A stretch of DNA of 40,368 nucleotides from Candidatus Woesearchaeota archaeon (GTDB taxonomy: Archaea; Nanobdellota; Nanobdellia; Woesearchaeales; JACPBV01). Position numbers and translations under genes: made by a program. The stretch is from assembly GCA_016188175.1 (NCBI GenBank), contig JACPII010000099.1, forward strand, positions 1 through 40,368, read 5' to 3'. Under the pieces are notes generated by a model. The model worked only from the letters and a program-made list of their open reading frames with translations, was not told the origin of the DNA and did no database searches. Below are positions 12,206 to 40,368 of this stretch, piece after piece. Within the stretch, counting starts at the first letter, position 1; each line of letters begins with the position of its first letter.

Positions 12206-12621
12206 TGCGGATTTCCTGAAGGCCATTTGTCCTGAAGCCTGGTGAGGATCGGCTCATGGCCATCTGTTCTGGAACAGAGGAATGGTGAACAGGACTGCAA
12301 AAGTTAATGGTGGATTAATCAAAAAACCAAAGGTGAGGCACATGGAATTTATTATTTTTTCCCCTGAAAAGGGGAAGCGGGTCTTTGGGGGCATAGACTT
12401 TGACAGTCTCCAAGATGAGTTTTTGGGGAAGTAAGGGCATCAAAAAAATGTTTGAACACCGGAGAACAAAAGAGTAAAGCACCACAAACCCTTGCTTCCC
12501 CCCCTTTATGGGGGTCACGTGGGGAATTTTTTTCTCAATCCTTAAGCAAATAATGTTATGCTCTATTCTTCATAACTTCCGACGCGGTCACCATGAGGGT
12601 ATTAATTGCAAGCAAATAATT

Positions 12622-13050
12622 TTAGGCCCTGTTCTTCATCCCTAATCTTTTGTCTACGTCTTCTGCAACGACTGTAAGGTCATCAAGAATCCTGTTGACG
12701 TCCTTCCGTATCTCCTCTACGGCGCTTTTCAAGCTCCCTCCGCGGAGGACGATAAACCGCTTGTGGCGGTAGAGGAGCCCTGCTTCCATGAGATTCCTCA
12801 GATGGTGGTTGACCCTTGCAAGAGAAATATCGAGGTCGTTCGCCAGCCCTTCAGACAGGATGGGCCCGTTCCGGGGGTAATGGAGCAACAGGTCTTCGAC
12901 AATCTTTTCTGATACACATTCGATGTCCCGTCCTGCAACAAATCCAAAACTGTTGCAGACCCACCTGATGTCGGTGCGAAGCTTCTTTTCCCTTGGCTTC
13001 TCCAAGTTCCTGAACCGTATCTCCTGGAGCATGGGGTTCCTTGCTCGCAA
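12622..13050 (-). CDS. winged-helix (ArsR-like) transcriptional regulator, divergent from groES
   Basis: LANDLDISLARVNHHLRNLMEAGLLYRHK is a typical HTH plus wing segment. Confidence 0.65.
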   Translation of the reverse strand: MRARNPMLQEIRFRNLEKPREKKLRTDIRWVCNSFGFVAGRDIECVSEKIVEDLLLHYPRNGPILSEGLANDLDISLARVNHHLRNLMEAGLLYRHKRFIVLRGGSLKSAVEEIRKDVNRILDDLTVVAEDVDKRLGMKNRA

Positions 13051-19415: not shown

Positions 19416-20423
19416 TCACTCAAATTCCCCCAGCGCAGCCTTCCCATACCCCTTCGCTTTTTCAAGCAGTGCGTCCTGGGCTGCTTTGATGTTGGCATCG
19501 CTGCCATTCCATGCCTTTAACGCTGCCCTCTGAAGCGCCCTCCCATAAGAAAAAGTTAATTTCCAGGGGAGCTGGCCCTTGAATTTTTTGTTCATCTCGT
19601 TGAGGTTGCTTGTTGCCGATTCATCGCTCTGGCCGCCGGAGAGGAACGCGATCCCGGGAACTTTCGGGGAGACCAACTCCTTAAAGCATGTGACGGTCAA
19701 ATCTGCAACCTTTTCCGGGGTTGCCTGGTCCGGGCAGGAAGATCCGGAGACAACCATGTTTGGCTTTAAGACCATCCCTTTCAGGTCAACTTTTAATCCT
19801 TTGAGCTCTTTGAACACCGACGCAAGCGTTTGTGCGGTGGCTTCGAGGCATTTTTCGATTGCATGGCTCCCGTCCATCAGCACCTCGGGCTCAACAATCG
19901 GGGTGATATCTGCTTCCTGGCACAATGCAGCATAGCGCGCCAATGCATGGGCGTTTGCCTTGATGCAGGCTTTTGTGGGAATAGCATCTCCGATGGCTAT
20001 CACGGCGCGCCATTTTGCGAACTTTGCGCCCAATGACCGGTACTCCTGCAATCTCTCCCGCAGGCCGTCCAATCCTTCCGTTATCGTTTCGTTGGAGAAC
20101 AGGGCAAGCGGCTTAGCGCCCTTGTCCACCTTTATGCCGGGAAGAATCCCCTGCTGCTCGAGGAGCCTTGGGAATGGAATTCCATCGGCCGTCTTTTGCC
20201 TGATGGTCTCATCAAAAAGGATTGCACCAGAAATGTAATCCCCCAACCCCGGAGCGGTTATGAGGAGCTGCCTGTATTTCCTCCTGTTCTCCTCAGTATT
20301 TTCAACACCGATTTCCTTAAAGCGCTTTTCAATCGTGCCGGTGCTTTCATCCATCGCAAGTATCCCTTTTCCGCCGGCGACCATCGCGAGCGCAGTCTTC
20401 CTGACCTCTTTTGTCATGTGCAT
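19416..20423 (-). CDS. fba: fructose-bisphosphate aldolase, class I
   Basis: GKGILAMDESTGTIEKRF N-terminal signature and full-length class I aldolase pattern (335 aa). Confidence 0.9.
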   Translation of the reverse strand: MHMTKEVRKTALAMVAGGKGILAMDESTGTIEKRFKEIGVENTEENRRKYRQLLITAPGLGDYISGAILFDETIRQKTADGIPFPRLLEQQGILPGIKVDKGAKPLALFSNETITEGLDGLRERLQEYRSLGAKFAKWRAVIAIGDAIPTKACIKANAHALARYAALCQEADITPIVEPEVLMDGSHAIEKCLEATAQTLASVFKELKGLKVDLKGMVLKPNMVVSGSSCPDQATPEKVADLTVTCFKELVSPKVPGIAFLSGGQSDESATSNLNEMNKKFKGQLPWKLTFSYGRALQRAALKAWNGSDANIKAAQDALLEKAKGYGKAALGEFE

Positions 20424-22066: not shown

Positions 22067-22267
22067 TAGGAAAGGACATCACTTTAGTTTGAATAAAGAT
22101 ATTCCATCAGTTTTTAACTTATGGTGTAATCCTGCCGGAAATGTAGCGGGAATATCTTTATTCTCAGAAATCCGACCGAGCGACCGGAGGGAGCGAGCAA
22201 TCCCCCCATCTATGACGGGGGTGTCGGATTTCTGTTGAAAACATACGAAAATTAATGTCCTTTCCTA
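22067..22267 (+). ncRNA. ~200-nt multi-helix structured element of unknown class (three-way junction); strand uncertain
   Basis: Closing helix TAGGAAAGGACAT (22067-22079) / ATGTCCTTTCCTA (22255-22267). Perfect 15-bp hairpin GAATAAAGATATTCC (22091-22105) / GGAATATCTTTATTC (22149-22163). 12-bp hairpin CAGAAATCCGAC (22165-22176) / GTCGGATTTCTG (22223-22234). No ORF and no flanking direct repeat. Confidence 0.5.
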
Positions 22268-22299: not shown

Positions 22300-23400
22300 C
22301 TATCTTTTTTTCCACCTTCCACAGCTTACTAATAAATATGGGGGCACATCTAGATGGGATTCATTCAGCCATCCGATATATCTTTTAAGGACGTTGTGAA
22401 CAGTTTTGAGATGACATCCCAACAGATCTGCAGCTCGTGTTCTATTCCCATCACTTTCACGTAATGCCTGATCTATCAGGAGAAACTGAATTTTATTGTA
22501 ACCGACTGTCGTACAATATTCCATAAGGTTCCGAATAGCTTTTCGCCCATTTGATAAATCCCCTTCGGGAGTCCCTGCAAGAACAGGATCCGGAAGAGCA
22601 TCCGCCCTTATCGTGAAGTCTTCCCCCATCAGGATTACTGCTCGCCCAACAATGTTTTTTAGCTCCCTGACATTTCCGGGGAAGGAATAGGATTGAAGAA
22701 TTTCGAGGAATCGTTTATCTACCGTGACGGGTTTCCCATCGATATCAACCCTCGGGGATTCTTCGTAAATACCCGAAACCTTGGCGACTCCCAGGGTGGG
22801 GCGGTACTCATTGAGGAATAGCTTGACGAAATGATATACTAATGGCCTAATATCCCCGGGCCTCTCTCTCAGGGGCGGTATACTTATCCCAAATTCGTTC
22901 AAGCGATAGAAAAGGGCGTCAATGAGGGTTCCATCCTCTTTCCCACCTGGTAGATTCTTACACGTTGCAGCCACAATCCTAACATTAAATGTGGAGGATG
23001 CTGCGCTTCCCACCCTGTAAAATTCCCTCTGCTCCAGAGCCCTCAATATTTTTCGCTGGGATTCAACGTCCATGTCTCCAATTTCATCGAGAAAAATTGT
23101 GCCGTCGCCAGCCCCCTCAAATAGCCCCGCCCTATCCCTCAAGGCACCGGTATAGGCACCATGGACACTGCCAAACAATTCAGACTCTACAAGGGTGGGT
23201 TGTATGGCGGTGCAATTGACGGCAACAAACGGGCTATCTCTACGGCCGCTAAATCGGTGGATAGCTCTTGCAACAAGCTCTTTTCCTGTCCCCGTTTCAC
23301 CGGCGATAAGGACGTTCGCATCAGTTGGAGCAACCTTGCGGATATATTCAATAACATCGCCCCCCATCGTCCCAACAATCCCATCAATTGTTTCTGGCAT
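22300..23400 (-). CDS. sigma54-interaction-domain AAA+ activator (bacterial enhancer-binding-protein type) with C-terminal Fis-type HTH and no N-terminal sensor domain
   Basis: Walker A GETGTGKE, ESELFG, GAFTGA-type loop (GAYTGA), Walker B GTIFLDEIG, R-finger region QRKILRALEQREFYRVG, sensor II VRELKN, and HTH NRTRAADLLGCHLKTVHNVLKRY. Confidence 0.85.
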   Translation of the reverse strand: MPETIDGIVGTMGGDVIEYIRKVAPTDANVLIAGETGTGKELVARAIHRFSGRRDSPFVAVNCTAIQPTLVESELFGSVHGAYTGALRDRAGLFEGAGDGTIFLDEIGDMDVESQRKILRALEQREFYRVGSAASSTFNVRIVAATCKNLPGGKEDGTLIDALFYRLNEFGISIPPLRERPGDIRPLVYHFVKLFLNEYRPTLGVAKVSGIYEESPRVDIDGKPVTVDKRFLEILQSYSFPGNVRELKNIVGRAVILMGEDFTIRADALPDPVLAGTPEGDLSNGRKAIRNLMEYCTTVGYNKIQFLLIDQALRESDGNRTRAADLLGCHLKTVHNVLKRYIGWLNESHLDVPPYLLVSCGRWKKR

Positions 23401-28343: not shown

Positions 28344-29303
28344 ATGCCAGTCAAAAAGGTTATTTTAGCAGGCCCCCGGGGCTTCTGCGCGGGTGTAGAA
28401 AGGGCTATCAGGATAGTTGAAGACTGCCTTTCGCTGTTTGGCCGGCCGGTCTATATTAAGCATGAGATTGTCCATAACAAGCATGTTGTCGAAGACCTTG
28501 CGAAAAAAGGGGCAATAACGATTGAGAGTGTCGATGAAGCTCCCCCCCATGCAGTTGTTATCTTCTCCGCCCATGGCAGCCCGCCCGAGCAGTACCGGAT
28601 AGCAAAGGAAAAAAACATCCGGCTTATTGATGCCACCTGCCCGTTAGTCACTAAAGTCCACTTCGAGGTCCATAGGTTTGCAGGGGACGGCCACAAAATA
28701 ATCTATATCGGCCATAAAGGCCACGTTGAGGGGGTTGGCGTTCTGGGAGAATTGCCGGGCCAGATATCCCTTGTCGAGTCTGTTGGGGATGTAAAAAATC
28801 TTGATATCGGAAATCCTGAAAAACTGATCTATCTTACCCAAACAACATTGAGCATTGATGAAACAAAAGCCATCGTTGCTGAACTGAAGAAAAAATACCC
28901 CCAGATGAGGGACCCCCCAAAAGAAGACATATGCTATGCCACGACAAACCGGCAGACTGCGATTAAAAAGCTGGCTGGTGGCGTTGATGTTGTCTTTGTC
29001 GTCGGCTCGAAGAACTCCTCCAATTCTATCAGGCTCGTTGAAACAGTTCATGCCTTGGGGAAGCCTGCCTATCTGATCGACAATGTTGAAGACATCATGC
29101 CTAACTGGCATTCTGAAGCGAACGTTGTTGGGATCAGCGCCGGGGCAAGCGCGCCGGAAAACCTCGTTCAGGAGATTGCCGAATTTTTTGTTCGCCAGGG
29201 AGCAGTCAAGGAAGAGTTTTCTTTAATGAAGGAAGAGGTATATTTTATCGACCCGCTGGAGCTGAGGAATGCGAAAGCCAAGGGAAATATAAGCAGGCGA
29301 TAA
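28344..29303 (+). CDS. ispH: 4-hydroxy-3-methylbut-2-enyl diphosphate reductase (IspH/LytB)
   Basis: PRGFCAGVERAI N-terminus, three-domain LytB pattern, conserved Cys positions and SKNSSNS. Confidence 0.92.
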   Translation: MPVKKVILAGPRGFCAGVERAIRIVEDCLSLFGRPVYIKHEIVHNKHVVEDLAKKGAITIESVDEAPPHAVVIFSAHGSPPEQYRIAKEKNIRLIDATCPLVTKVHFEVHRFAGDGHKIIYIGHKGHVEGVGVLGELPGQISLVESVGDVKNLDIGNPEKLIYLTQTTLSIDETKAIVAELKKKYPQMRDPPKEDICYATTNRQTAIKKLAGGVDVVFVVGSKNSSNSIRLVETVHALGKPAYLIDNVEDIMPNWHSEANVVGISAGASAPENLVQEIAEFFVRQGAVKEEFSLMKEEVYFIDPLELRNAKAKGNISRR

Positions 29304-29926: not shown

Positions 29927-30127
29927 AGCCCGTTAAAATCTCAAGTTTTCCACCAGTATGTTTCACTGGCGGTTTACCACAAGAATAATATCTTGTGGAG
30001 AATGACAACAAGAACATTGTTCTTGAGCCTATGCCGATGGCATAGAGAACAAAAAATCCGACCCGAGCGACCGGAGCGAGCATGCCGCCCCTCTATGGGG
30101 GGGCGGTCGGCGAACTTTTGACGGGCT
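29927..30127 (+). ncRNA. ~200-nt multi-hairpin structured element sharing a ~57-63-nt module with 22067-22267; strand uncertain
   Basis: Closing helix AGCCCGTTAAAA (29927-29938) / TTTTGACGGGCT (30116-30127). Serial hairpins are CCACAAGA-TAATA-TCTTGTGG, CAAGAAC-AT-GTTCTTG and CTATGCC-GA-TGGCATAG. The module AAATCCGAC-CCGAGCGACCGGAGCGAGC-..CCCC-TCTAT-GGGG..GTCGG spans 30054-30110. Confidence 0.45.
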
Positions 30128-30360
30128 TGCTCCGCGGGAGATAGCCAAACGTACCAATGATGATCCCCGCAATGTCAGTTCCCGGATTTGTTACGGCCTG
30201 GAGCAATTAAGGAAGGAGCTTTCAGGGCTTGAACCCAATTTTTTTGGATGATTATCTAACCCGGTAAATTCTCTGCCTCTCCTCGGATTTTCTATGGGTA
30301 GTTATAAAAATTCATTGATTGCATCGTTCCATCAACCGTTCATTTCCAGGTCTAGAAACT

Positions 30361-31416
30361 ATGCCCAGCTCAAAACCAATCGCTCAAGTTATCCGAAAGC
30401 TTACCGTTAAAGGTAAAAACGTCCTTGCCGCCGATGAAAGCAAAAAAACAGTTACCGAGAGGTTTGAAAGGAAAGGCATTCCTCCGACAGATGAAAACAT
30501 CAGGCTGTACCGGGAATGGATTGTAACTACTCCTGGACTTGAGAGGTACGTCAGCGGAATAATCCTTTTTAAGGAAACGTTGGAACAGGCCGGCAGCCAC
30601 GGGAAACCATTCGTTGAAACTCTCCATGAAAAGGGCATTGTCATCGGAGTAAAATCTGATGAAGGGCTTTACAAGCCCGCGGGATGGGGTGAAAATATCA
30701 CCCAGATGGAGAGCCCCAGGAAATTGTTGGAAACCCTCAAGAGATACAGGGAAACGCACGGTGTCCAGTTCACCAAATGCAGGTCATTGTTTTCCATCGG
30801 CCCAAACACCCCCTCAAACCGTGCGATTGACATCAATGGGGCGATGATGGCGCTCGACGCTCTTGTTTCCCTGGAAGCTGGGCTTTTTCCTATTGTTGAG
30901 CCGGAGGTTGAGCGTGCCGGAACCCACACCATAGACCAGTGCTCATCTTATGCCATTGCAGTATACTCGCGGCTGAATGAGAAGCTCAGGCAGTATGGTG
31001 CAGCAATTTCCGATGTTGGAATCAAAACAAATTTTACCGTCCAGGGTGCAGATTGTGGCGGTACAATACCTCCCCGTGAAGTTGCCAAAATGACGTTTCA
31101 GGCTCTTGCAAAAGGATTTGGGTTCTACGGCGTTGAATCAATCTCCATTTTCTTCATGCTGTCCGGAGGCTTGGATGACCTGCCCTCGGGCCAATATCTC
31201 CATGAATTGAACCGGTTTGTTGAAAAAGGCCCCTTTGCAAAAGAAAAAACTTTCATGGCTTCTTATTCCAGAGCAATGCTGGACAAGGCTTTGGATGTTT
31301 GGGCAGGAAACCCAAGGAATGTTGAAAAGGCCCAAAAGAAGCTGTTGGAGCGCGCCAAGGCATTCAGCGAAGCAAGGCAGGGGAGATTGGATGTTAAGGA
31401 TTATAATTGGGCTTAA
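30361..31416 (+). CDS. class I fructose-bisphosphate aldolase-like protein (divergent second copy)
   Basis: GKNVLAADESKKTVTERF signature and collinear similarity to the aldolase at 19416-20423. Start set at ATG 30361. Confidence 0.75.
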   Translation: MPSSKPIAQVIRKLTVKGKNVLAADESKKTVTERFERKGIPPTDENIRLYREWIVTTPGLERYVSGIILFKETLEQAGSHGKPFVETLHEKGIVIGVKSDEGLYKPAGWGENITQMESPRKLLETLKRYRETHGVQFTKCRSLFSIGPNTPSNRAIDINGAMMALDALVSLEAGLFPIVEPEVERAGTHTIDQCSSYAIAVYSRLNEKLRQYGAAISDVGIKTNFTVQGADCGGTIPPREVAKMTFQALAKGFGFYGVESISIFFMLSGGLDDLPSGQYLHELNRFVEKGPFAKEKTFMASYSRAMLDKALDVWAGNPRNVEKAQKKLLERAKAFSEARQGRLDVKDYNWA

Positions 31417-34593: not shown

Positions 34594-35958
34594 TTATCCC
34601 CTATCAATATATTTTGAAAATCCAGAAATATTCCCCCTTGCTACCGACGCTTTCACTTCCTGCAGGATATCCGGCCGGTCGGTTATAATGCCATCAACTC
34701 CCATGCTTAACAGGCGGAACATAAAGTAGGGATTATTAACTGTCCAAACGATGACCTTGAGCCCGTCGTTATGGGCTGCATCTACCATTCCCTTGTCCAC
34801 AATGTCTAACGGGGGGAGAATCACTGAAGCGCCGGCTGATTTGGTTTTCCTGATATATCCTTGAGTTATGGCCCTATTCAGCCTGCCCCCTTCTTTCGAG
34901 AACGCCACCCTTTTAAGTTTGTAAATAACTGATTCATGAACGCTTGCGGCAAAATTCTCAAATGCAATTCCAGTGCTGTACCTCAAGTCCATCCTCTTGA
35001 TTATCTCGACGGATTCCCTGTCAAAAGAATGGATAATAAACCGGGAATGGTGGACTCTGTAACGATCAAGGGCTTCTTTGACCCCCTGGGCCAAAAGATA
35101 TTTTTCTTCCCGTCTCAGGCCAACCGCTATTTTAAGCTCAATGTCCATCTGGCACTTTCTCTCTAACAGCTCAATCACTTCTGTAAAAAGGGGGATTTTT
35201 TCACCGGGAGCATCCTTAACATTCAGCTTCCTTAATGCATCGAGCGATAGGTCAACAACCCTCCCTTTTCCAGTGGTAGTCCTGTCAACGGTATCATCAT
35301 GCATGATCACTAGTTCACCCGTTTTGCACCGCTGGACGTCAAATTCAATCATGCCAACATTAAACGTCAGGCCGAGGCGCATCGACTTCAGGGTGTTTTC
35401 AGGACACAATTCCCTGGCACCCCTATGCCCGATATTCAGGACTTTTTCAGCATTGGCTTTCAACTCGTCAGAAAATCCCCTTTCGATATCCCTTTCAATG
35501 GTTTCTAGGAATTTTTCTTCCCCCCGGACCAAAATCTCTTCTTCCTTTACGAGCCTCAAAAAGTGATGGAACTTTACTTTAAGGCCCCATTGTAATGCAT
35601 CTTTATGGAACAATGCAATTTGCCCAGAAAGGAGCTCACCAAGTTTTTGAACATTCGAGAGGAGCTCTCTTCCCTCTGCACCAAGAGCCGTTGAACCTTT
35701 TTCTTCGAGGCGAGCAGCAAGCCTTATGGTAAATTTCTTCTCAGCTTTAACCTCGCCTTTTTCCTCAGCAAGGAGATTCTTGAGCCTTTTGATGACGACC
35801 CTTAATCCCGAAATATTCTGTTCGCGCCCATGGAGCGAATATTCCCTAACCACTTCCTGCTTTTCCCTGGTTAATGCAAGAATTTTTTCAAACTCATCAA
35901 CTTCCCGGGAAAGCTCGGGGTACTTCTCATTTACCCATGGGGGGATGGTTAAGCTCAT
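34594..35958 (-). CDS. glycerophosphodiester phosphodiesterase (GDPD) with an N-terminal coiled-coil region
   Basis: GHRGA..ENT, EFDV and VIMHDDTVDRTT motifs. Start trimmed to ATG 35958 because the track N-terminus runs through the intergenic repeat copies. Confidence 0.8.
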   Translation of the reverse strand: MSLTIPPWVNEKYPELSREVDEFEKILALTREKQEVVREYSLHGREQNISGLRVVIKRLKNLLAEEKGEVKAEKKFTIRLAARLEEKGSTALGAEGRELLSNVQKLGELLSGQIALFHKDALQWGLKVKFHHFLRLVKEEEILVRGEEKFLETIERDIERGFSDELKANAEKVLNIGHRGARELCPENTLKSMRLGLTFNVGMIEFDVQRCKTGELVIMHDDTVDRTTTGKGRVVDLSLDALRKLNVKDAPGEKIPLFTEVIELLERKCQMDIELKIAVGLRREEKYLLAQGVKEALDRYRVHHSRFIIHSFDRESVEIIKRMDLRYSTGIAFENFAASVHESVIYKLKRVAFSKEGGRLNRAITQGYIRKTKSAGASVILPPLDIVDKGMVDAAHNDGLKVIVWTVNNPYFMFRLLSMGVDGIITDRPDILQEVKASVARGNISGFSKYIDRG

Positions 35959-36005
35959 AACGTTGAATTGCCGCTCCTTCCGGTTAATATACTTATGGGT
36001 GCAGG

Positions 36006-36025
36006 TCACTCGCCACTTGCCATCC
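36006..36025 (+). repeat. truncated (first 20 nt) copy of the 40-nt cassette repeat
   Basis: TCACTCGCCACTTGCCATCC is identical to 36072-36091. Identity stops exactly after ..CATCC. Confidence 0.9.
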
Positions 36026-36071
36026 TTGATGTTCGCTGCCTGCCCAACAACGAAAAGGAGAATTGAAAAGT

Positions 36072-36111
36072 TCACTCGCCACTTGCCATCCGCAGCCGGC
36101 GGGTATTTAAA
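36072..36111 (+). repeat. 40-nt cassette repeat copy 1 (ends in TATA-like TATTTAAA)
   Basis: TCACTCGCCACTTGCCATCCGCAGCCGGCGGGTATTTAAA. The next ATG is at 36147. Confidence 0.95.
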
Positions 36112-36146
36112 TCACCCGTCCGGCCCTGAGTACCTGGTCGATTTTC

Positions 36147-36434
36147 ATGGATGAGGTTTTCAGAATACTCGGCAGGCATGGAAAGGAGATTTATCTCAGC
36201 AAGGAAAGATGGGCTCATATCGTCAGCGAACATCCGGAGGTTGCTCCTTATTTCCCTGAATTTGAGCCTGCTCTCCGGAATCCTGGCGCGGTAAAACAAT
36301 TTTCAGAAGACCCATCCATCTTCTATTTTTATCGGTTTATCAAACCTAAGAGGAGGTTTTTGCTTGTCATCGTTAAATATTTAAACGGAGAAGGCTTTGT
36401 TATCACCGCCTATCTGGTGAGGCATATCCAATGA
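36147..36434 (+). CDS. small putative toxin-like protein (first gene of a two-gene module)
   Basis: 95 aa. The N-terminal pattern ..IYLSKERWAHIVSEHPEV.. is recurrent in small toxin-like proteins. ATGA overlap with the downstream DUF2283-like gene. Confidence 0.5.
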   Translation: MDEVFRILGRHGKEIYLSKERWAHIVSEHPEVAPYFPEFEPALRNPGAVKQFSEDPSIFYFYRFIKPKRRFLLVIVKYLNGEGFVITAYLVRHIQ

Positions 36435-36658
36435 AAGGACCGATGCGGCTGCATTACGACGAGAAAGGGGATTTTCTTGAGATTTCTGCAGGAAAACCTA
36501 CAGCATGTTATGCTGATGAGATAGAGCCCGGGGTGTTTCTCAGGAAAGATGAAAAGACCGACGAAGTTAAAGGGATAGGAATCTTAAATTTCAAAAAGCG
36601 CTCCAAGAATTTGAAAGACATTGACGTTAAGGTCCCCATTGAGATAACGATTGGCTAG
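36431..36658 (+). CDS. DUF2283-like small protein (putative antitoxin)
   Basis: 75 aa. MRLHYDEKGDFLEI.. and ..VKGIGILNF are typical of DUF2283 (YD..D.L.I and G.E.L patterns). Confidence 0.6.
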   Translation: MKGPMRLHYDEKGDFLEISAGKPTACYADEIEPGVFLRKDEKTDEVKGIGILNFKKRSKNLKDIDVKVPIEITIG

Positions 36659-36684
36659 TGCAAACATCCCTTTCTTCTTGTTTT

Positions 36685-36724
36685 CCACTTGCCACTTGCC
36701 ATCCGCAGCCGGCGGGTATTTAAA
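36685..36724 (+). repeat. 40-nt cassette repeat copy 2
   Basis: CCACTTGCCACTTGCCATCCGCAGCCGGCGGGTATTTAAA. It starts 26 nt after the preceding stop, and the next ATG is at 36772. Confidence 0.95.
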
Positions 36725-36771
36725 CTCCCGGGCCTATTTTTCATTAGGCAGTTTTACAAAAGGTTTCAGCC

Positions 36772-36981
36772 ATGGAGATAGTTTTTTCCGATCATGCAAG
36801 GATGCGGATGGGTCAACGCGGGATTTCCCTATGGGAAGTTAAGCACGTCTTGGAATTTCCCGATGAGACAAGGAATTCTTCCGAAGGGAGGAAAATAGCA
36901 ATCGGAATGGCAGGTACCAGGTCTCTCCGTGTTGTTTTTATTGAGGTAGAAAACTATATAAAGATTATCACCGTCCTTTAG
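36772..36981 (+). CDS. DUF4258-like small protein (putative toxin)
   Basis: 69 aa. MEIVFSDHARMRMGQRGISLWEVKHVL matches the DUF4258 N-terminal pattern (..H...RM..RGI....V). Confidence 0.65.
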   Translation: MEIVFSDHARMRMGQRGISLWEVKHVLEFPDETRNSSEGRKIAIGMAGTRSLRVVFIEVENYIKIITVL

Positions 36982-36984
36982 AAC

Positions 36985-37191
36985 ATGAAAATCACCTATG
37001 ACCCAGACGCAGATGCAGCGTACATCTACGTAAAATTCCCCATTAAAAGGGGGGAGGCAAAGAATACGGTGGCTATCAACGAAAATATCATCGTTGATTT
37101 CGATGCGAAGGGGAAGATGCTTGGAATTGAGGTTCTTTCCGCCAAGAAGATGTTGAATAAAGAAGTTTTAATGGAAGCCAAGACGCTGTAA
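36985..37191 (+). CDS. DUF2283 small protein (putative antitoxin)
   Basis: MKITYDPDADAAYIYV...GKMLGIEVLSAKK is the classic DUF2283 pattern. It starts 3 nt after the upstream gene. Confidence 0.75.
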   Translation: MKITYDPDADAAYIYVKFPIKRGEAKNTVAINENIIVDFDAKGKMLGIEVLSAKKMLNKEVLMEAKTL

Positions 37192-37195
37192 TGCC

Positions 37196-37235
37196 CCACT
37201 TGCCACTTGCCATCCGCAGCCGGCGGGTATTTAAA
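37196..37235 (+). repeat. 40-nt cassette repeat copy 3
   Basis: Identical to copy 2. It starts 4 nt after the preceding stop codon, and the next plausible ATG is at 37258. Confidence 0.95.
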
Positions 37236-37257
37236 CCAGAAACCCGGAAGCATAGGT

Positions 37258-37752
37258 ATGCTTCAGCTCAAACAGGTTGCGGGAAAGGTGACATTGCTCC
37301 GGGGCGACAGCTCAACATTGTTCACTTTGCTCATGTCAGCTGCTGCAAAGCTCCAGAACATCTCCAAGGTCCTCTTTGTGGATTCCGCAAACTGTTTTAA
37401 CCCCTATCTTTTGAAAAAGCTCTCTCCGAGGAATATACTTCCTATTCTCCGCAACATCCTCATTGCCCGGCCGTTTAACGCCTACCAGCTTAAAGAGATA
37501 GTTCTCCGGCTTGAAAAATCCATCCAGGAAACGAAAAGCAGAGCCCTTATCATCTCGTCCATCGATGTGTTCCATGACGATGTAACTAGTGAGGAAGCTC
37601 CATTCCTTTTCAGCCTTGTCCTCAATGAGATACGGTCGCTTACAAGAAAATACCGGCTGGTGACGCTTGTAGGCTCGACCAAGTCAGAGAAAGCCGCTCA
37701 ACAGGTGGCCACGCTGGTGCACAAGAAGATTGATCAGTCGTATGTGGTGTGA
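37258..37752 (+). CDS. RecA/RadB-superfamily-like protein lacking a Walker A lysine motif
   Basis: Layout like RadB/KaiC: VTLLRGDSSTLFTLLM where GxxxxGK[ST] is expected, then VLFVDSANCFNPY, ILIARPFNAYQ, and ALIISSID as a Walker B-like strand. Start moved to ATG 37258 because the track start at 37207 lies inside the repeat. Confidence 0.5.
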   Translation: MLQLKQVAGKVTLLRGDSSTLFTLLMSAAAKLQNISKVLFVDSANCFNPYLLKKLSPRNILPILRNILIARPFNAYQLKEIVLRLEKSIQETKSRALIISSIDVFHDDVTSEEAPFLFSLVLNEIRSLTRKYRLVTLVGSTKSEKAAQQVATLVHKKIDQSYVV

Positions 37753-37847
37753 ATTATCCTGGGTAGCAAATTCCCTCAGAAAACGGGGATAAAGATATAT
37801 TCTTCAGTATAGAAACATTTATATAAAACTTATAAAATTACTTAAGT

Positions 37848-38474
37848 ATGGTGCTGGATGCCTCGGGTGGCGGGGGTAATTATTCTGGGCCGTCAAATCA
37901 GGCTGACGATAGGATTGATTTCTTGAATAAACAAGCGCTTCGCCACGTTGAAGGTATCCGGGGGGTTATGCCTGTTCCTTCCGTAGAAGAGCTTGAACAG
38001 ATGGTTGAAACAAGAAGGACCAGCCAAAATCCTTTTCCCGAAAAAGTTGTCGTTGTTGAAGCAAAGGCTGAGGCGCTTAGAGATTACCTGGCAGGGCCTG
38101 GTTCAAGGAGGAATATGGTTATTGTTCCCACCTTAAGGATTTACCAGCTTGCGAGAGTGCGTGGTGACGATATACCTCCCATCGAAAGAGGCGAATTTCA
38201 TTTAAAGGGGTATGATCCCCACAACGGGCATGTTGTCAATGGGCACTTTGCAAGGGTTGAGTTCTTATTCGTCCAGCCTGAAAACCACTTTGTCCCTTTT
38301 CATTCATCCCTTGTTCCCCTTAGGCCAACAAAAAATGATTTAGGATATGACCCCTTTGCCACCATTCAGCTGAGTGATGACATTTTAACGTCGGGAAGGT
38401 TTTTACGTTTCCGGCCCGACAGCTATGAGCCTCAACTTCTGGAAATGCTTTTTGGGCATCCGGTTAAGAATTGA
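37848..38474 (+). CDS. hypothetical protein
   Basis: 208-aa ORF with its own TATA-like TTTATATAAA about 25 nt upstream. No motif recognised. Confidence 0.5.
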   Translation: MVLDASGGGGNYSGPSNQADDRIDFLNKQALRHVEGIRGVMPVPSVEELEQMVETRRTSQNPFPEKVVVVEAKAEALRDYLAGPGSRRNMVIVPTLRIYQLARVRGDDIPPIERGEFHLKGYDPHNGHVVNGHFARVEFLFVQPENHFVPFHSSLVPLRPTKNDLGYDPFATIQLSDDILTSGRFLRFRPDSYEPQLLEMLFGHPVKN

Positions 38475-38736
38475 CTATCCTGTATTTGGTTAGCACCTTC
38501 GAAATCCTAGACGATACACCGCAGGCGCTGCGTCCCCGGATGGGTGAGCGTAGTGTTCCGGTGCCTCCGAAGCGGTAGAGAGCGAGACACAAAAAACATA
38601 CGTTTTTTAGTGCCTTCGGCACGGAGGAGAATCTAGCGTTCCTGCCTTGCAGGAGGAGGGCGACCCCCCGCAACGCGCCAGCCGTCGGTAGTTGAAAGTA
38701 TTTCGACTTTGGGGTGCTAAACAAATACGCTATCCT
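38474..38736. mobile_element. MITE-like element, family A copy 2, enlarged (core 38482-38728, 247 bp, plus TSDs)
   Basis: TIRs are GTATTTGGTTAGCACC (38482-38497) and GGTGCTAAACAAATAC (38713-38728), 15/16. Flanking 8-mers are ACTATCCT and GCTATCCT (7/8). The left TSD starts with the last base of the upstream stop codon. Confidence 0.8.
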
Positions 38737-38743
38737 CAGAATT

Positions 38744-40006
38744 TTATCGGACATAAATCTGCGCCCGTTCAGAAAATCCGTTTACCTCATCAGCCGTCTT
38801 TCCGGGAAACGCCTCAAATTTCAGCTTCCTGTCTTCAAGGAGCTGAACCAACGCAACGCCTTGAACAAAGTCATCATTTTTTGCCTTTAGGCCTTTTGCA
38901 AGATTCCGATAATCAAATTCTTTGCTGCCATCATAAAGCTTGTATTCCACAAGCTCATATTTTACTAATCCTGTTTCCTTTCCCACGGTGGAAGGCTCAG
39001 GAGCATTTCCCTTGACTCCAAACTGCCTTGCAATGCCATTGAATGTTCCGATCGACAGGATAAAATGCTCGGGGTCGATGTTGTTCGGCACGACTGCGAG
39101 ATGGTCAGCCCAATATCTCTCCTGCTTTAATCCCCCCCATCCCTTCGTGCCCTCCTTGAACCATGTTCCGGTGAGCGCCCCATCAATGTCATAATCGATA
39201 GTGCCTCCTTCCGGCTTTGCCGTCCTCAGGCTTTTTGACATAAGCTTGGTTTTCAGCGGCTCGTCATAATAATAGAAAGGGTCCTGGATATGCGCCCGAT
39301 TGGGGTCTTTCTCATAACTTTCTGGGTTGATGAACCGTATTGAAAACTCTTTATCGACGGCATTAAAGTCAACATTGCTGTCAAACCACCCGATCACTTC
39401 GCCTGCCTTGACGGGAACATTGACGCTTGTATACTCGCCGGGCTTCGGGGCGACTGCTTTAATCCTGTCAGAGAGCCTGTCAATGTGGATGAAGATGGTT
39501 GATATCGTGCAGGTATGCTCGATGACGATGCGATAGTCGTCAAAAGGCTCACGCTGCTGGTCCCCCCGGAAAGAGCCCATATGCTGGATGTCGGTGACGA
39601 TGCCATCTGCCGGTGCGTAAACCTCGATGTTTGCTTCTTTGTTGAAGAAGTTCTGGTAGTACTGGTGGTCAATGGGAGCAACATGCTCTCCCGCCAGCCC
39701 GCCCATCGGAATGATGTAGGTTATCTTGTCAAGATTTACGGGAGGATAAGAAAGCTTGATAAATTTTCCTGAGCATCGGGGAAAAGGTGAACCCCCATCA
39801 AAGTTTCTCCCAATATCCTCTTGGCCCCTTGAAGCGGCAGGAATGCTGGTTTCTGGCTCATGGAGGTTTGATTCATTAGGTTTTTCGGCATTTTCCTGAA
39901 CTCTTTCCGGAACAATGCTTGTTTCCTGTTTAAGCCCGCGGGGCTGGCACCCAATAATGAATATAGCGAGAACGATTAAACAAATCAGCCGGAATGAGTT
40001 TCTCAT
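38744..40006 (-). CDS. secreted lipoprotein, possibly M23/LytM-like peptidase fold
   Basis: Signal peptide with lipobox-like LAIFIIGC. Weak M23-like features are HVAPIDH, ADGIVTDI and IEHTCTISTIFIHID. Start trimmed to ATG 40006 (MRNSFRL). Confidence 0.5.
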   Translation of the reverse strand: MRNSFRLICLIVLAIFIIGCQPRGLKQETSIVPERVQENAEKPNESNLHEPETSIPAASRGQEDIGRNFDGGSPFPRCSGKFIKLSYPPVNLDKITYIIPMGGLAGEHVAPIDHQYYQNFFNKEANIEVYAPADGIVTDIQHMGSFRGDQQREPFDDYRIVIEHTCTISTIFIHIDRLSDRIKAVAPKPGEYTSVNVPVKAGEVIGWFDSNVDFNAVDKEFSIRFINPESYEKDPNRAHIQDPFYYYDEPLKTKLMSKSLRTAKPEGGTIDYDIDGALTGTWFKEGTKGWGGLKQERYWADHLAVVPNNIDPEHFILSIGTFNGIARQFGVKGNAPEPSTVGKETGLVKYELVEYKLYDGSKEFDYRNLAKGLKAKNDDFVQGVALVQLLEDRKLKFEAFPGKTADEVNGFSERAQIYVR

Positions 40007-40095
40007 AACTGTATGCCTTGATGCTGGTAGTATTAAAATGTTTGTTGGTATGCGGCACAGGTCTGCCGTCCATGCTCCCTTGGCAATATTTATTG

Positions 40096-40135
40096 CCACT
40101 CGCCACTTGCCATCCGCAGCCGGCGGGTATTTAAA
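40096..40135 (+). repeat. 40-nt cassette repeat copy 4
   Basis: CCACTCGCCACTTGCCATCCGCAGCCGGCGGGTATTTAAA, preceded by the palindrome GGCAATA-TT-TATTGCC. The next ATG is at 40224. Confidence 0.95.
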
Positions 40136-40223
40136 TGCAGGTTCTTATATTCTCTATGGTGAAGGCCAAGTGCATTGCAGCATCGAAAACCTTAAATAAG
40201 TAAAGGTACTTAGTCTACCTAAA

Positions 40224-40367
40224 ATGACTAATATGACCCTGGCAATTCCGGAAGAGCTCCACAAGCTCATGAAAGAGCATTCTGACATTAAGTGGAGTGA
40301 AGTTGCGAGAAAAGCAATCTGGGAGCATGCAAAAAGGCAGGAGCAGCTAAAAATCATGGACGGGCTG
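40224..40367 (+). CDS. ribbon-helix-helix antitoxin-like protein, 3'-truncated by window end
   Basis: Hand translation gives MTNMTLAIPEELHKLMKEHSDIKWSEVARKAIWEHAKRQEQLKIMDGL. This is the typical archaeal VapB/CopG-like pattern (..I.IPEEL...L......WSEV.R.AI). It is absent from the track because no stop codon falls inside the window. Confidence 0.55.
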   Translation, partial: MTNMTLAIPEELHKLMKEHSDIKWSEVARKAIWEHAKRQEQLKIMDGL

Positions 40368-40368
40368 C

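Follow-up and report, generated by a model that had tools for sequence, protein, structure and literature searches.

In archaeal viruses, SIRV2 among them, unrelated small early or anti-defence genes share a near-identical promoter, made up of a B recognition element (BRE) and a TATA box, together with a presumed repressor site (Bhoobalan-Chitty et al. 2024, PMC11065993). The ribbon-helix-helix (RHH) protein omega of pSM19035 binds contiguous 7-bp heptads in several promoters, and controls the toxin-antitoxin (TA) operon omega-epsilon-zeta, in which the antitoxin is not itself a DNA-binding protein (PMC4627068). Integrons and clusters of attC sites lacking integron-integrases (CALINs) have been reported in Archaea too, where attC sites and IntI define the known examples (PMC9668308). 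Here we compare these systems with a stretch of 40,368 nucleotides from a Candidatus Woesearchaeota archaeon (assembly GCA_016188175.1, contig JACPII010000099.1; hereafter the window), towards the end of which a 40-base element, the 40-mer, recurs in front of small genes.

We think that the 40-mer is probably a shared archaeal promoter with an attached regulator-binding site, and not an integron-like recombination site. Of the systems described so far, the archaeal viral consensus sequences come closest, as they too combine a conserved promoter with unrelated genes behind it. Unlike them, the element described here lies on a cellular chromosome and stands before TA operons and a RadA paralogue. 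Its segment ahead of the TATA box is GC-rich instead of A-rich, its three heptads are direct and not inverted repeats, and it is known from sequence alone. The likeness to omega lies in the unspaced 7-bp repeats at promoters and in the RHH genes linked to the element. However, omega is bacterial, its heptad (WATCACW) differs from those found here, and it uses 6-10 heptads rather than three, so we offer the resemblance only as an analogy for a possible mode of action and not as a sign of family membership.

A further parallel is the LexA/SOS regulon of bacteria, in which one type of operator stands before a recombinase-family gene and several TA modules. Here, by contrast, there is no LexA, the operator is unrelated and the promoter architecture is archaeal. 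A link between the element and DNA damage would be based only on the RadA-fold gene, and is speculation.

The 40-base element and its promoter context

The 40-mer, CCACTYGCCACTTGCCATCCGCAGCCGGCGGGTATTTAAA, has four matches in the window with 0-1 mismatch, all on the plus strand: R1 at 36072-36111, R2 at 36685-36724, R3 at 37196-37235 and R4 at 40096-40135. None of 100 dinucleotide-preserving shuffles contained any match. The sole mismatch is the T that forms the first base of R1, and among the copies within the window only positions 1 and 6 vary. When the copies are aligned with their flanks, unrelated sequence begins immediately beyond both ends, which gives the element sharp boundaries. The mismatch search and the flank alignment thus confirm what a first-pass annotation, made from the letters of the window, had said of four near-identical copies in the same orientation with two variable positions and sharp edges. 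Its count of four holds for full copies but misses a fifth, partial one, TCACTCGCCACTTGCCATCC, at 36006-36025 (+), which comprises bases 1-20 of the 40-mer only and lies 66 nt upstream of R1. No further copies were found in the remaining 36 kb of the window, even with 3 mismatches allowed in the 19-base left half. The full copies are spaced 613, 511 and 2900 nt from start to start, with genes inside the intervals.

The first 21 bases consist of three unspaced heptads, YCACTYG CCACTTG CCATCCG, and this triple, which the annotation had also pointed out, is more repetitive than shuffled versions of the 40-mer (p about 1e-4). The partial copy holds the three-heptad part alone (TCACTCG CCACTTG CCATCC); as it duplicates exactly that part, the heptads appear to be a separable unit. 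A divergent GDPD gene has its TATA-like box some 15 nt downstream of the partial copy when the opposite strand is read. A small GC hairpin described earlier did not hold up: folding energies are those of shuffled sequence (minimum free energy -4.5 kcal/mol, z = 0.01 for the top strand; -5.1 kcal/mol, z = -0.04 for the other), and one of the four pairs in its 4-bp stem is lost through a lineage variant that changes GG to CC. The element had no match in Rfam, either at gathering scores or at E up to 5. A structured RNA, considered as an identity for the 40-mer, was rejected as there was no fold signal.

The contig carries a thermosome gene, L10e, TruD, ZPR1 and an HVO_0163-type helix-turn-helix (HTH) regulator, archaeal markers that identify it as archaeal. 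When the 90 bases upstream of 37 window genes are listed, most show a TTTAAA/TTTATA box whose end is 21-27 nt from the ATG, which by sequence is the pattern of leaderless archaeal genes. The last 8 bases of the 40-mer, TATTTAAA, match this consensus. The repeat stops 35 nt short of the ATG at R1, 47 nt at R2, 22 nt at R3 and 88 nt at R4; the spacing at R3 looks leaderless, and those at R1 and R2 imply short leaders. Additionally, every full copy is intergenic and co-oriented with the next gene, both in the window and in the related contigs introduced below (L010 and the orthologues in L008, L015-L023, L028 and L029). The invariant 11-12 GC-rich bases before the TATA sequence occupy the BRE position, where transcription factor B (TFB) would bind, whereas the other TATA boxes of the window are preceded by A-rich sequence. 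We therefore propose a division of the element into a putative TATA box formed by its last 8 bases, a preceding GC-rich segment at the BRE/TFB position, and three heptads that are the predicted binding site of a trans-acting regulator.

The same GC-rich segment, placed exactly where a BRE belongs and unlike the sequence before other boxes, might instead mark promoters recognised as a class by an alternative general transcription factor, a paralogue of TFB or of the TATA-binding protein (TBP), in an archaeal counterpart of an alternative sigma-factor regulon. The conserved stretch does span what a TBP/TFB complex with upstream contacts would cover. We nevertheless hold this to be quite improbable: in one lineage GG has become CC right before the TATA box and the element has been retained, the partial copy has heptads without the TATA-adjacent segment, and conservation extends farther upstream of the TATA box than normal TFB contacts, which usually stop short of 30-40 bases upstream of the box.

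Related loci and selection on the element

Species-representative genomes scanned with the central 22-mer gave only chance matches, in high-GC Actinobacteria. A scan of Joint Genome Institute (JGI) metagenomes with a 23-mer, which preceded the discovery of a GGCGCC variant and does not cover it, returned two true relatives (L008 and L010, from one JGI sample) and two chance matches. In viral contigs the right half of the 40-mer matched nothing and the left half one family of chance 19-mer matches; plasmid and phage collections gave no match. Peptides translated from all frames of the repeat, which would reveal open reading frames (ORFs) called across copies, had no match among proteins. Further relatives came through homologues of the RadA-like gene behind R3. 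These fall into the L015 lineage (13 contigs with 90% protein identity, of which ten, L015-L024, were read), the L028 lineage (two contigs, L028 and L029, 81-85% identity) and a marine lineage (L025-27, 54% identity). The 40-mer precedes the RadA-like gene in the three close lineages, those of the window, L015 and L028, always with 22 nt to the ATG, and is absent before this gene in the marine lineage.

Across these three lineages the element before the RadA-like gene differs by 1-3 changes in 40, against 25-43% change at neighbouring near-neutral sites, for which we took the 22-nt spacer and the third codon positions of the RadA-like gene. Between R3 of the window and L028 there is one difference in 40, compared with 73 in 186 at the reference sites (Fisher p = 6e-7); L015 and L028 differ at two of 40 positions and at 80 of 186 (Fisher p = 1e-6). 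R4 is identical at 40 of 40 bases between genomes whose adjacent genes are 85% identical. Among ten distinct copies compared, variation is confined to positions 1 and 6, both in the first heptad, and to positions 31-32, directly before the TATA box. In the L015 lineage, copy 3 shows the change at 31-32, GG to CC, as a fixed difference in samples taken at many sites; R3 there reads GGCGCC, whereas R4 and L010 retain GGCGGG. Nearly all 40 bases are under strong purifying selection.

The very high identity of the copies lends itself to another account, in which they are relics of a recent duplication or gene conversion of a strong core promoter, the upstream half having no function and there being no common regulator. 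R1 and R2 each precede a toxin gene with a DUF2283 partner, and these two units could stem from a tandem duplication. This account seems rather unlikely to us. Orthologous copies differ at 1-2 of 40 positions, heptad part included, despite about 40% change at near-neutral sites, and the heptad part stands alone at 36006-36025. Copies in one genome keep stable private differences, which argues against ongoing conversion and for selection on each copy rather than homogenisation. As the coding sequences behind the copies have no detectable DNA similarity to one another, any duplication would have to be old, yet the 40-mer is invariant. How the module came to stand before unrelated genes could be explained by duplication followed by gene replacement, or by ordinary recombination between copies.

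Tests for a recombination or other repeat system

The first-pass annotation had likened the series to integron-like cassettes moved by recombination. The likeness is that, as in integron arrays (PMC9668308), a repeat punctuates a row of small units and toxin-antitoxin genes abound among them, and it can be put as a definite alternative: the 40-mer would be an att-like site, short, unstructured and promoter-bearing, and cassettes with one 5' copy each would be moved by a recombinase encoded elsewhere. The near-identical, sharply bounded copies would fit, as would the three compact tandem units with R3 just 4 nt past a stop codon, and the partial copy beside R1 could be a recombination scar.

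Tests specific to integrons gave a different result. When R'' (RYYYAAC) and R' (GTTRRRY) cores lying 40-130 nt apart were sought, no pair was found in 35900-40368, in line with the lack of such cores that the annotation had recorded, and the whole window held 4, fewer than the shuffle mean of 10. The 40-mer folds no better than shuffles. No recombinase domain was found among the approximately 40 ORFs of the 40-kb contig or in the relatives' contigs; nor was an IntI found in the contigs read. Whereas integrons have attC sites with their own sequence and structure, the repeat here includes a TATA box and stands at the 5' end of its unit, and units do not have flanking repeats at both ends. L010 and the R4/L008 locus, for example, have a single copy with none after the cassette. 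L008, the orthologue of the R4 locus, reads lipoprotein gene, 40-mer, 78-aa RHH gene, PIN_2 toxin and DNA polymerase B (PolB), with no further copy. The annotation had asked whether the array continues past 40368; by orthology, the series ends after cassette 4, a VapB-like gene and PIN toxin followed by PolB.

Strain variation, too, seems to lie mostly away from the repeat, unlike that of an integron. The DNA upstream of R3 does differ among close strains, a point in favour of an att-like site. In the window it consists of the DUF4258/DUF2283 pair. In L015-18, GatB and aminotransferase pseudogene fragments are fused to the last 146 nt of the DUF2283 gene, and in L019-22 an unrelated gene and a hairpin-rich 170-nt stretch are joined to its last 43 nt. 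Both variants leave remnants of DUF2283 and break inside that gene, which points to ordinary deletion or insertion and not to precise excision. In L023, unrelated AT-rich DNA extends up to the exact 5' edge of the repeat, whose copy starts with CCACTTG, like R2. L028/29 have an AsnC/Lrp gene at 92 nt upstream. The breakpoints among close strains, all on short metagenome contigs, are therefore two of three inside DUF2283 and one of three at the repeat edge. Only the L023 junction is compatible with a repeat-to-repeat event, and homologous recombination between two 40-nt copies or a chimeric assembly of a poorly covered metagenome contig would explain it equally well. The lineage carries the RadA paralogue behind R3 as a conserved chromosomal gene, and R3 and this paralogue are retained in relatives in which the upstream TA pair has decayed.

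Taken with these findings, an att-like site moved by a recombinase encoded elsewhere is unlikely. It is conceivable that the 40-mer is both a promoter and the attachment site of an undescribed, attC-free archaeal cassette system with its recombinase elsewhere, which would account for the tandem series, the exact junction at the repeat edge in L023 and the half-site scar near R1, but we regard this as very unlikely. The 40-mer series is not a member of the integron family, a clustered regularly interspaced short palindromic repeat (CRISPR) array or a miniature inverted-repeat transposable element (MITE). The annotation had named a promoter or operator module shared between loci as its other option, and this one is supported: the TATA sequence matches the genome consensus, the copies are co-oriented with their genes, the 22 nt before the RadA-like gene are conserved, and the element is under purifying selection.

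Several other candidates were considered and rejected. A CRISPR array would have similar short spacers, whereas the spacings here are wrong and the intervals contain genes. The end of a MITE or insertion sequence was discarded because the 40-mer has no inverted partner or flanking duplication, unlike the true MITE of the same region. An origin recognition box (ORB) of a replication origin does not agree with the lack of a dyad, with copies that are all direct and each before a gene, or with the fact that no orc1/cdc6 was seen. Finally, a small ORF behind R4 was rejected, as its ATG is lost and it has non-synonymous changes in L008. PADLOC reported nothing relevant, and the GC profile shows no island signal.

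Two of the variant contigs hold features that may merit attention in themselves. In L015, at 1839-2521, aminotransferase-like pseudogene fragments run in frame into the 3' part of DUF2283. The 170-nt stretch of L019, at 540-710, contains three perfect 12-14-nt hairpins and is possibly a small mobile element or RNA.

Genes behind the copies and neighbouring features

The gene content of the four cassettes, and the position of R3 4 nt after the preceding stop codon, are as first described. The layout behind the copies is that of type II TA systems, with small adjacent or overlapping gene pairs in which one partner has a toxin-family domain. R1, composed like the others of heptads, GC-rich segment and TATTTAAA, ends 35 nt before the ATG of a 95-aa toxin-like gene at 36147-36434 (+), which has a weak match to PBECR2 (Barnase-EndoU-ColicinE5/D-RelE; E 2.6e-4, below the Pfam cut-off). 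Its presumed antitoxin partner, at 36431-36658 (+), is a 75-aa DUF2283 protein (E 3.7e-5); this pair is less well supported than the other TA pairs. Behind R2, which ends 47 nt before the ATG, are a 69-aa DUF4258/BrnT-like toxin at 36772-36981 (+; E 1.5e-10) and a 68-aa DUF2283 protein at 36985-37191 (+; E 3e-17), of which related strains keep only the 3' remnants of 146 nt or 43 nt.

R3 ends 22 nt before a 164-aa short RadA/Rad51-fold paralogue at 37258-37752 (+), in which the P-loop is replaced by GDSSTLFT. The protein has the RAD51/DMC1/RadA core fold (TMq 0.75, E 1e-7). At E up to 0.001, a profile search for its small family found 363 cluster representatives, of which 49 reach E up to 1e-10. 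The top-ranking ones are often 135-190 aa long and grade into proteins of 200-340 aa. As a conserved chromosomal family member of the lineage, this gene is not a mobile cassette. Its conserved neighbour at 37848-38474 (+) encodes a 208-aa protein of unknown function and has its own TTTATATA box. Next come a MITE insertion at 38482-38729, with inverted ends GTATTTGGTTAGCACC / GGTGCTAAACAAATAC and a CTATCCT duplication at 38475-38481 and 38730-38736, and a lipoprotein gene (lipobox IIGC) at 38744-40006 (-), which has its own predicted promoter and is divergent from R4. R4 lies 88 nt before the start codon of a VapB-like RHH antitoxin gene at 40224-40368 (+), which is cut by the contig end; its 78-aa orthologue is followed by a PIN_2 toxin (E 1.6e-16) and then PolB. 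The newly found locus L010 consists of the 40-mer, a second RHH gene, 43% identical to the VapB-like one in the N-terminal domain, and then a PemK/MazF toxin (E 1.2e-15). In exact look-ups, the small cassette proteins and the lipoprotein were not on record.

The GDPD gene next to R1, at 34594-36075 (-), is represented by protein record P0001 as 493 aa from a GTG at 36075, crossing the partial copy into R1. Since its homologues have 439-457 aa, and the ATG at 35958 is preceded at about 25 nt by a TATA-like box, the true product is probably 454 aa. The closest relatives of this neighbour are only 39% identical and have another gene context.

The 248-nt MITE copy at 38482-38729 is not part of the promoter system; L008 and L015 lack it at the orthologous site, and Logan contigs are interrupted at its edge. 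Shorter relatives at 1062-1191 and 2497-2632 flank truD in inverted orientation. The window contains two other direct repeats. One, of 30 nt and 87% identical, is at 12544-12573 and 12610-12639, at the 3' end of a small HTH gene, with a spacing of 66 nt that equals the spacing of the partial copy to R1. The other, a GC-rich repeat of 34 nt (CCGAGCGACCGGAG...; 76% identical), is at 22176-22209 and 30063-30096, in two intergenic regions about 7.9 kb apart. We also note bacterial-type genes on this archaeal contig, at 22300-23400 (-), 28344-29303 (+), 19416-20423 (-) and 30319-31416 (+): a sigma-54-interaction AAA+ activator with a Fis-type HTH, IspH/LytB and two class-I (PF00274) fructose-bisphosphate aldolases.

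A predicted regulon of toxin-antitoxin operons and a RadA paralogue

As a promoter with an attached operator, the module would drive at least four TA operons (PBECR2-like/DUF2283, DUF4258/DUF2283, VapB-PIN and RHH-MazF) and also the conserved P-loop-less RadA paralogue. A common module before all of these suggests a single regulon in which stress or addiction modules and the RadA paralogue come under common control. The regulator would bind the heptads cooperatively beside the BRE and TATA box, and in this way could control the access of TFB and TBP. Our preferred candidate is the VapB-like RHH domain common to the two RHH antitoxins behind element copies, which might act as omega does on unspaced heptads in several promoters. 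Stress would then lead to the loss of a labile regulator, and all the promoters that contain the element would be switched on together. We know of no DNA-binding domain in the DUF2283 partners. An alternative TFB, or the AsnC/Lrp protein adjoining the element in L029, is also possible as the regulator. The AsnC/Lrp-type gene of that contig, from a Hainich groundwater lineage, lies at 276-779, with 92 nt between its end and the downstream 40-mer in front of the RadA-like gene.

Besides the L023 junction, several observations weigh against the promoter-operator reading. First, the GC-rich segment is unlike a typical BRE, which is purine- or A-rich. Second, the RHH genes behind R4 and in L010 have a TATA-like box of their own about 24-26 nt before the ATG. 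At R4 this second, proximal box is CCTTAAATAAG, at 40190-40200 (+), about 24 nt before the RHH ATG, and it is kept both in the L008/L015 orthologue and at L010, a paralogous locus; at these genes, the 40-mer could thus act as no more than a second, distal promoter or as a control element farther upstream. Third, near-total invariance over 40 bases exceeds what is usual for a regulator site. Fourth, no 40-mer was found upstream of about 30 other window genes, and the distinct loci with the element number only six so far. Fifth, the RHH assignment is based on a precomputed Pfam RHH_12 match, a weak NCBIfam VapB match and predicted secondary structure. Finally, the promoter function of the 40-mer is itself deduced from its letters alone.

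What is new here is not a new kind of genetic element but a chromosomal counterpart of a known kind, unusual in the near-total invariance of its 40 bases. It also carries a caution, in that a shared promoter before toxin-antitoxin genes can mimic an integron array. With the exact motif, YCACTYGCCACTTGCCATCCGCAGCCGGCGSSTATTTAAA, one could catalogue the regulon of the source genome and search for its regulator. Little is known about the regulation of archaeal toxin-antitoxin systems or about transcription control in such lineages, so that even a regulon described at the level of sequence is useful. If our reading is true, the locus would provide a testable case of co-regulation in an uncultivated groundwater archaeon, in which a 40-bp promoter-operator ties toxin-antitoxin modules to a RadA-family gene.

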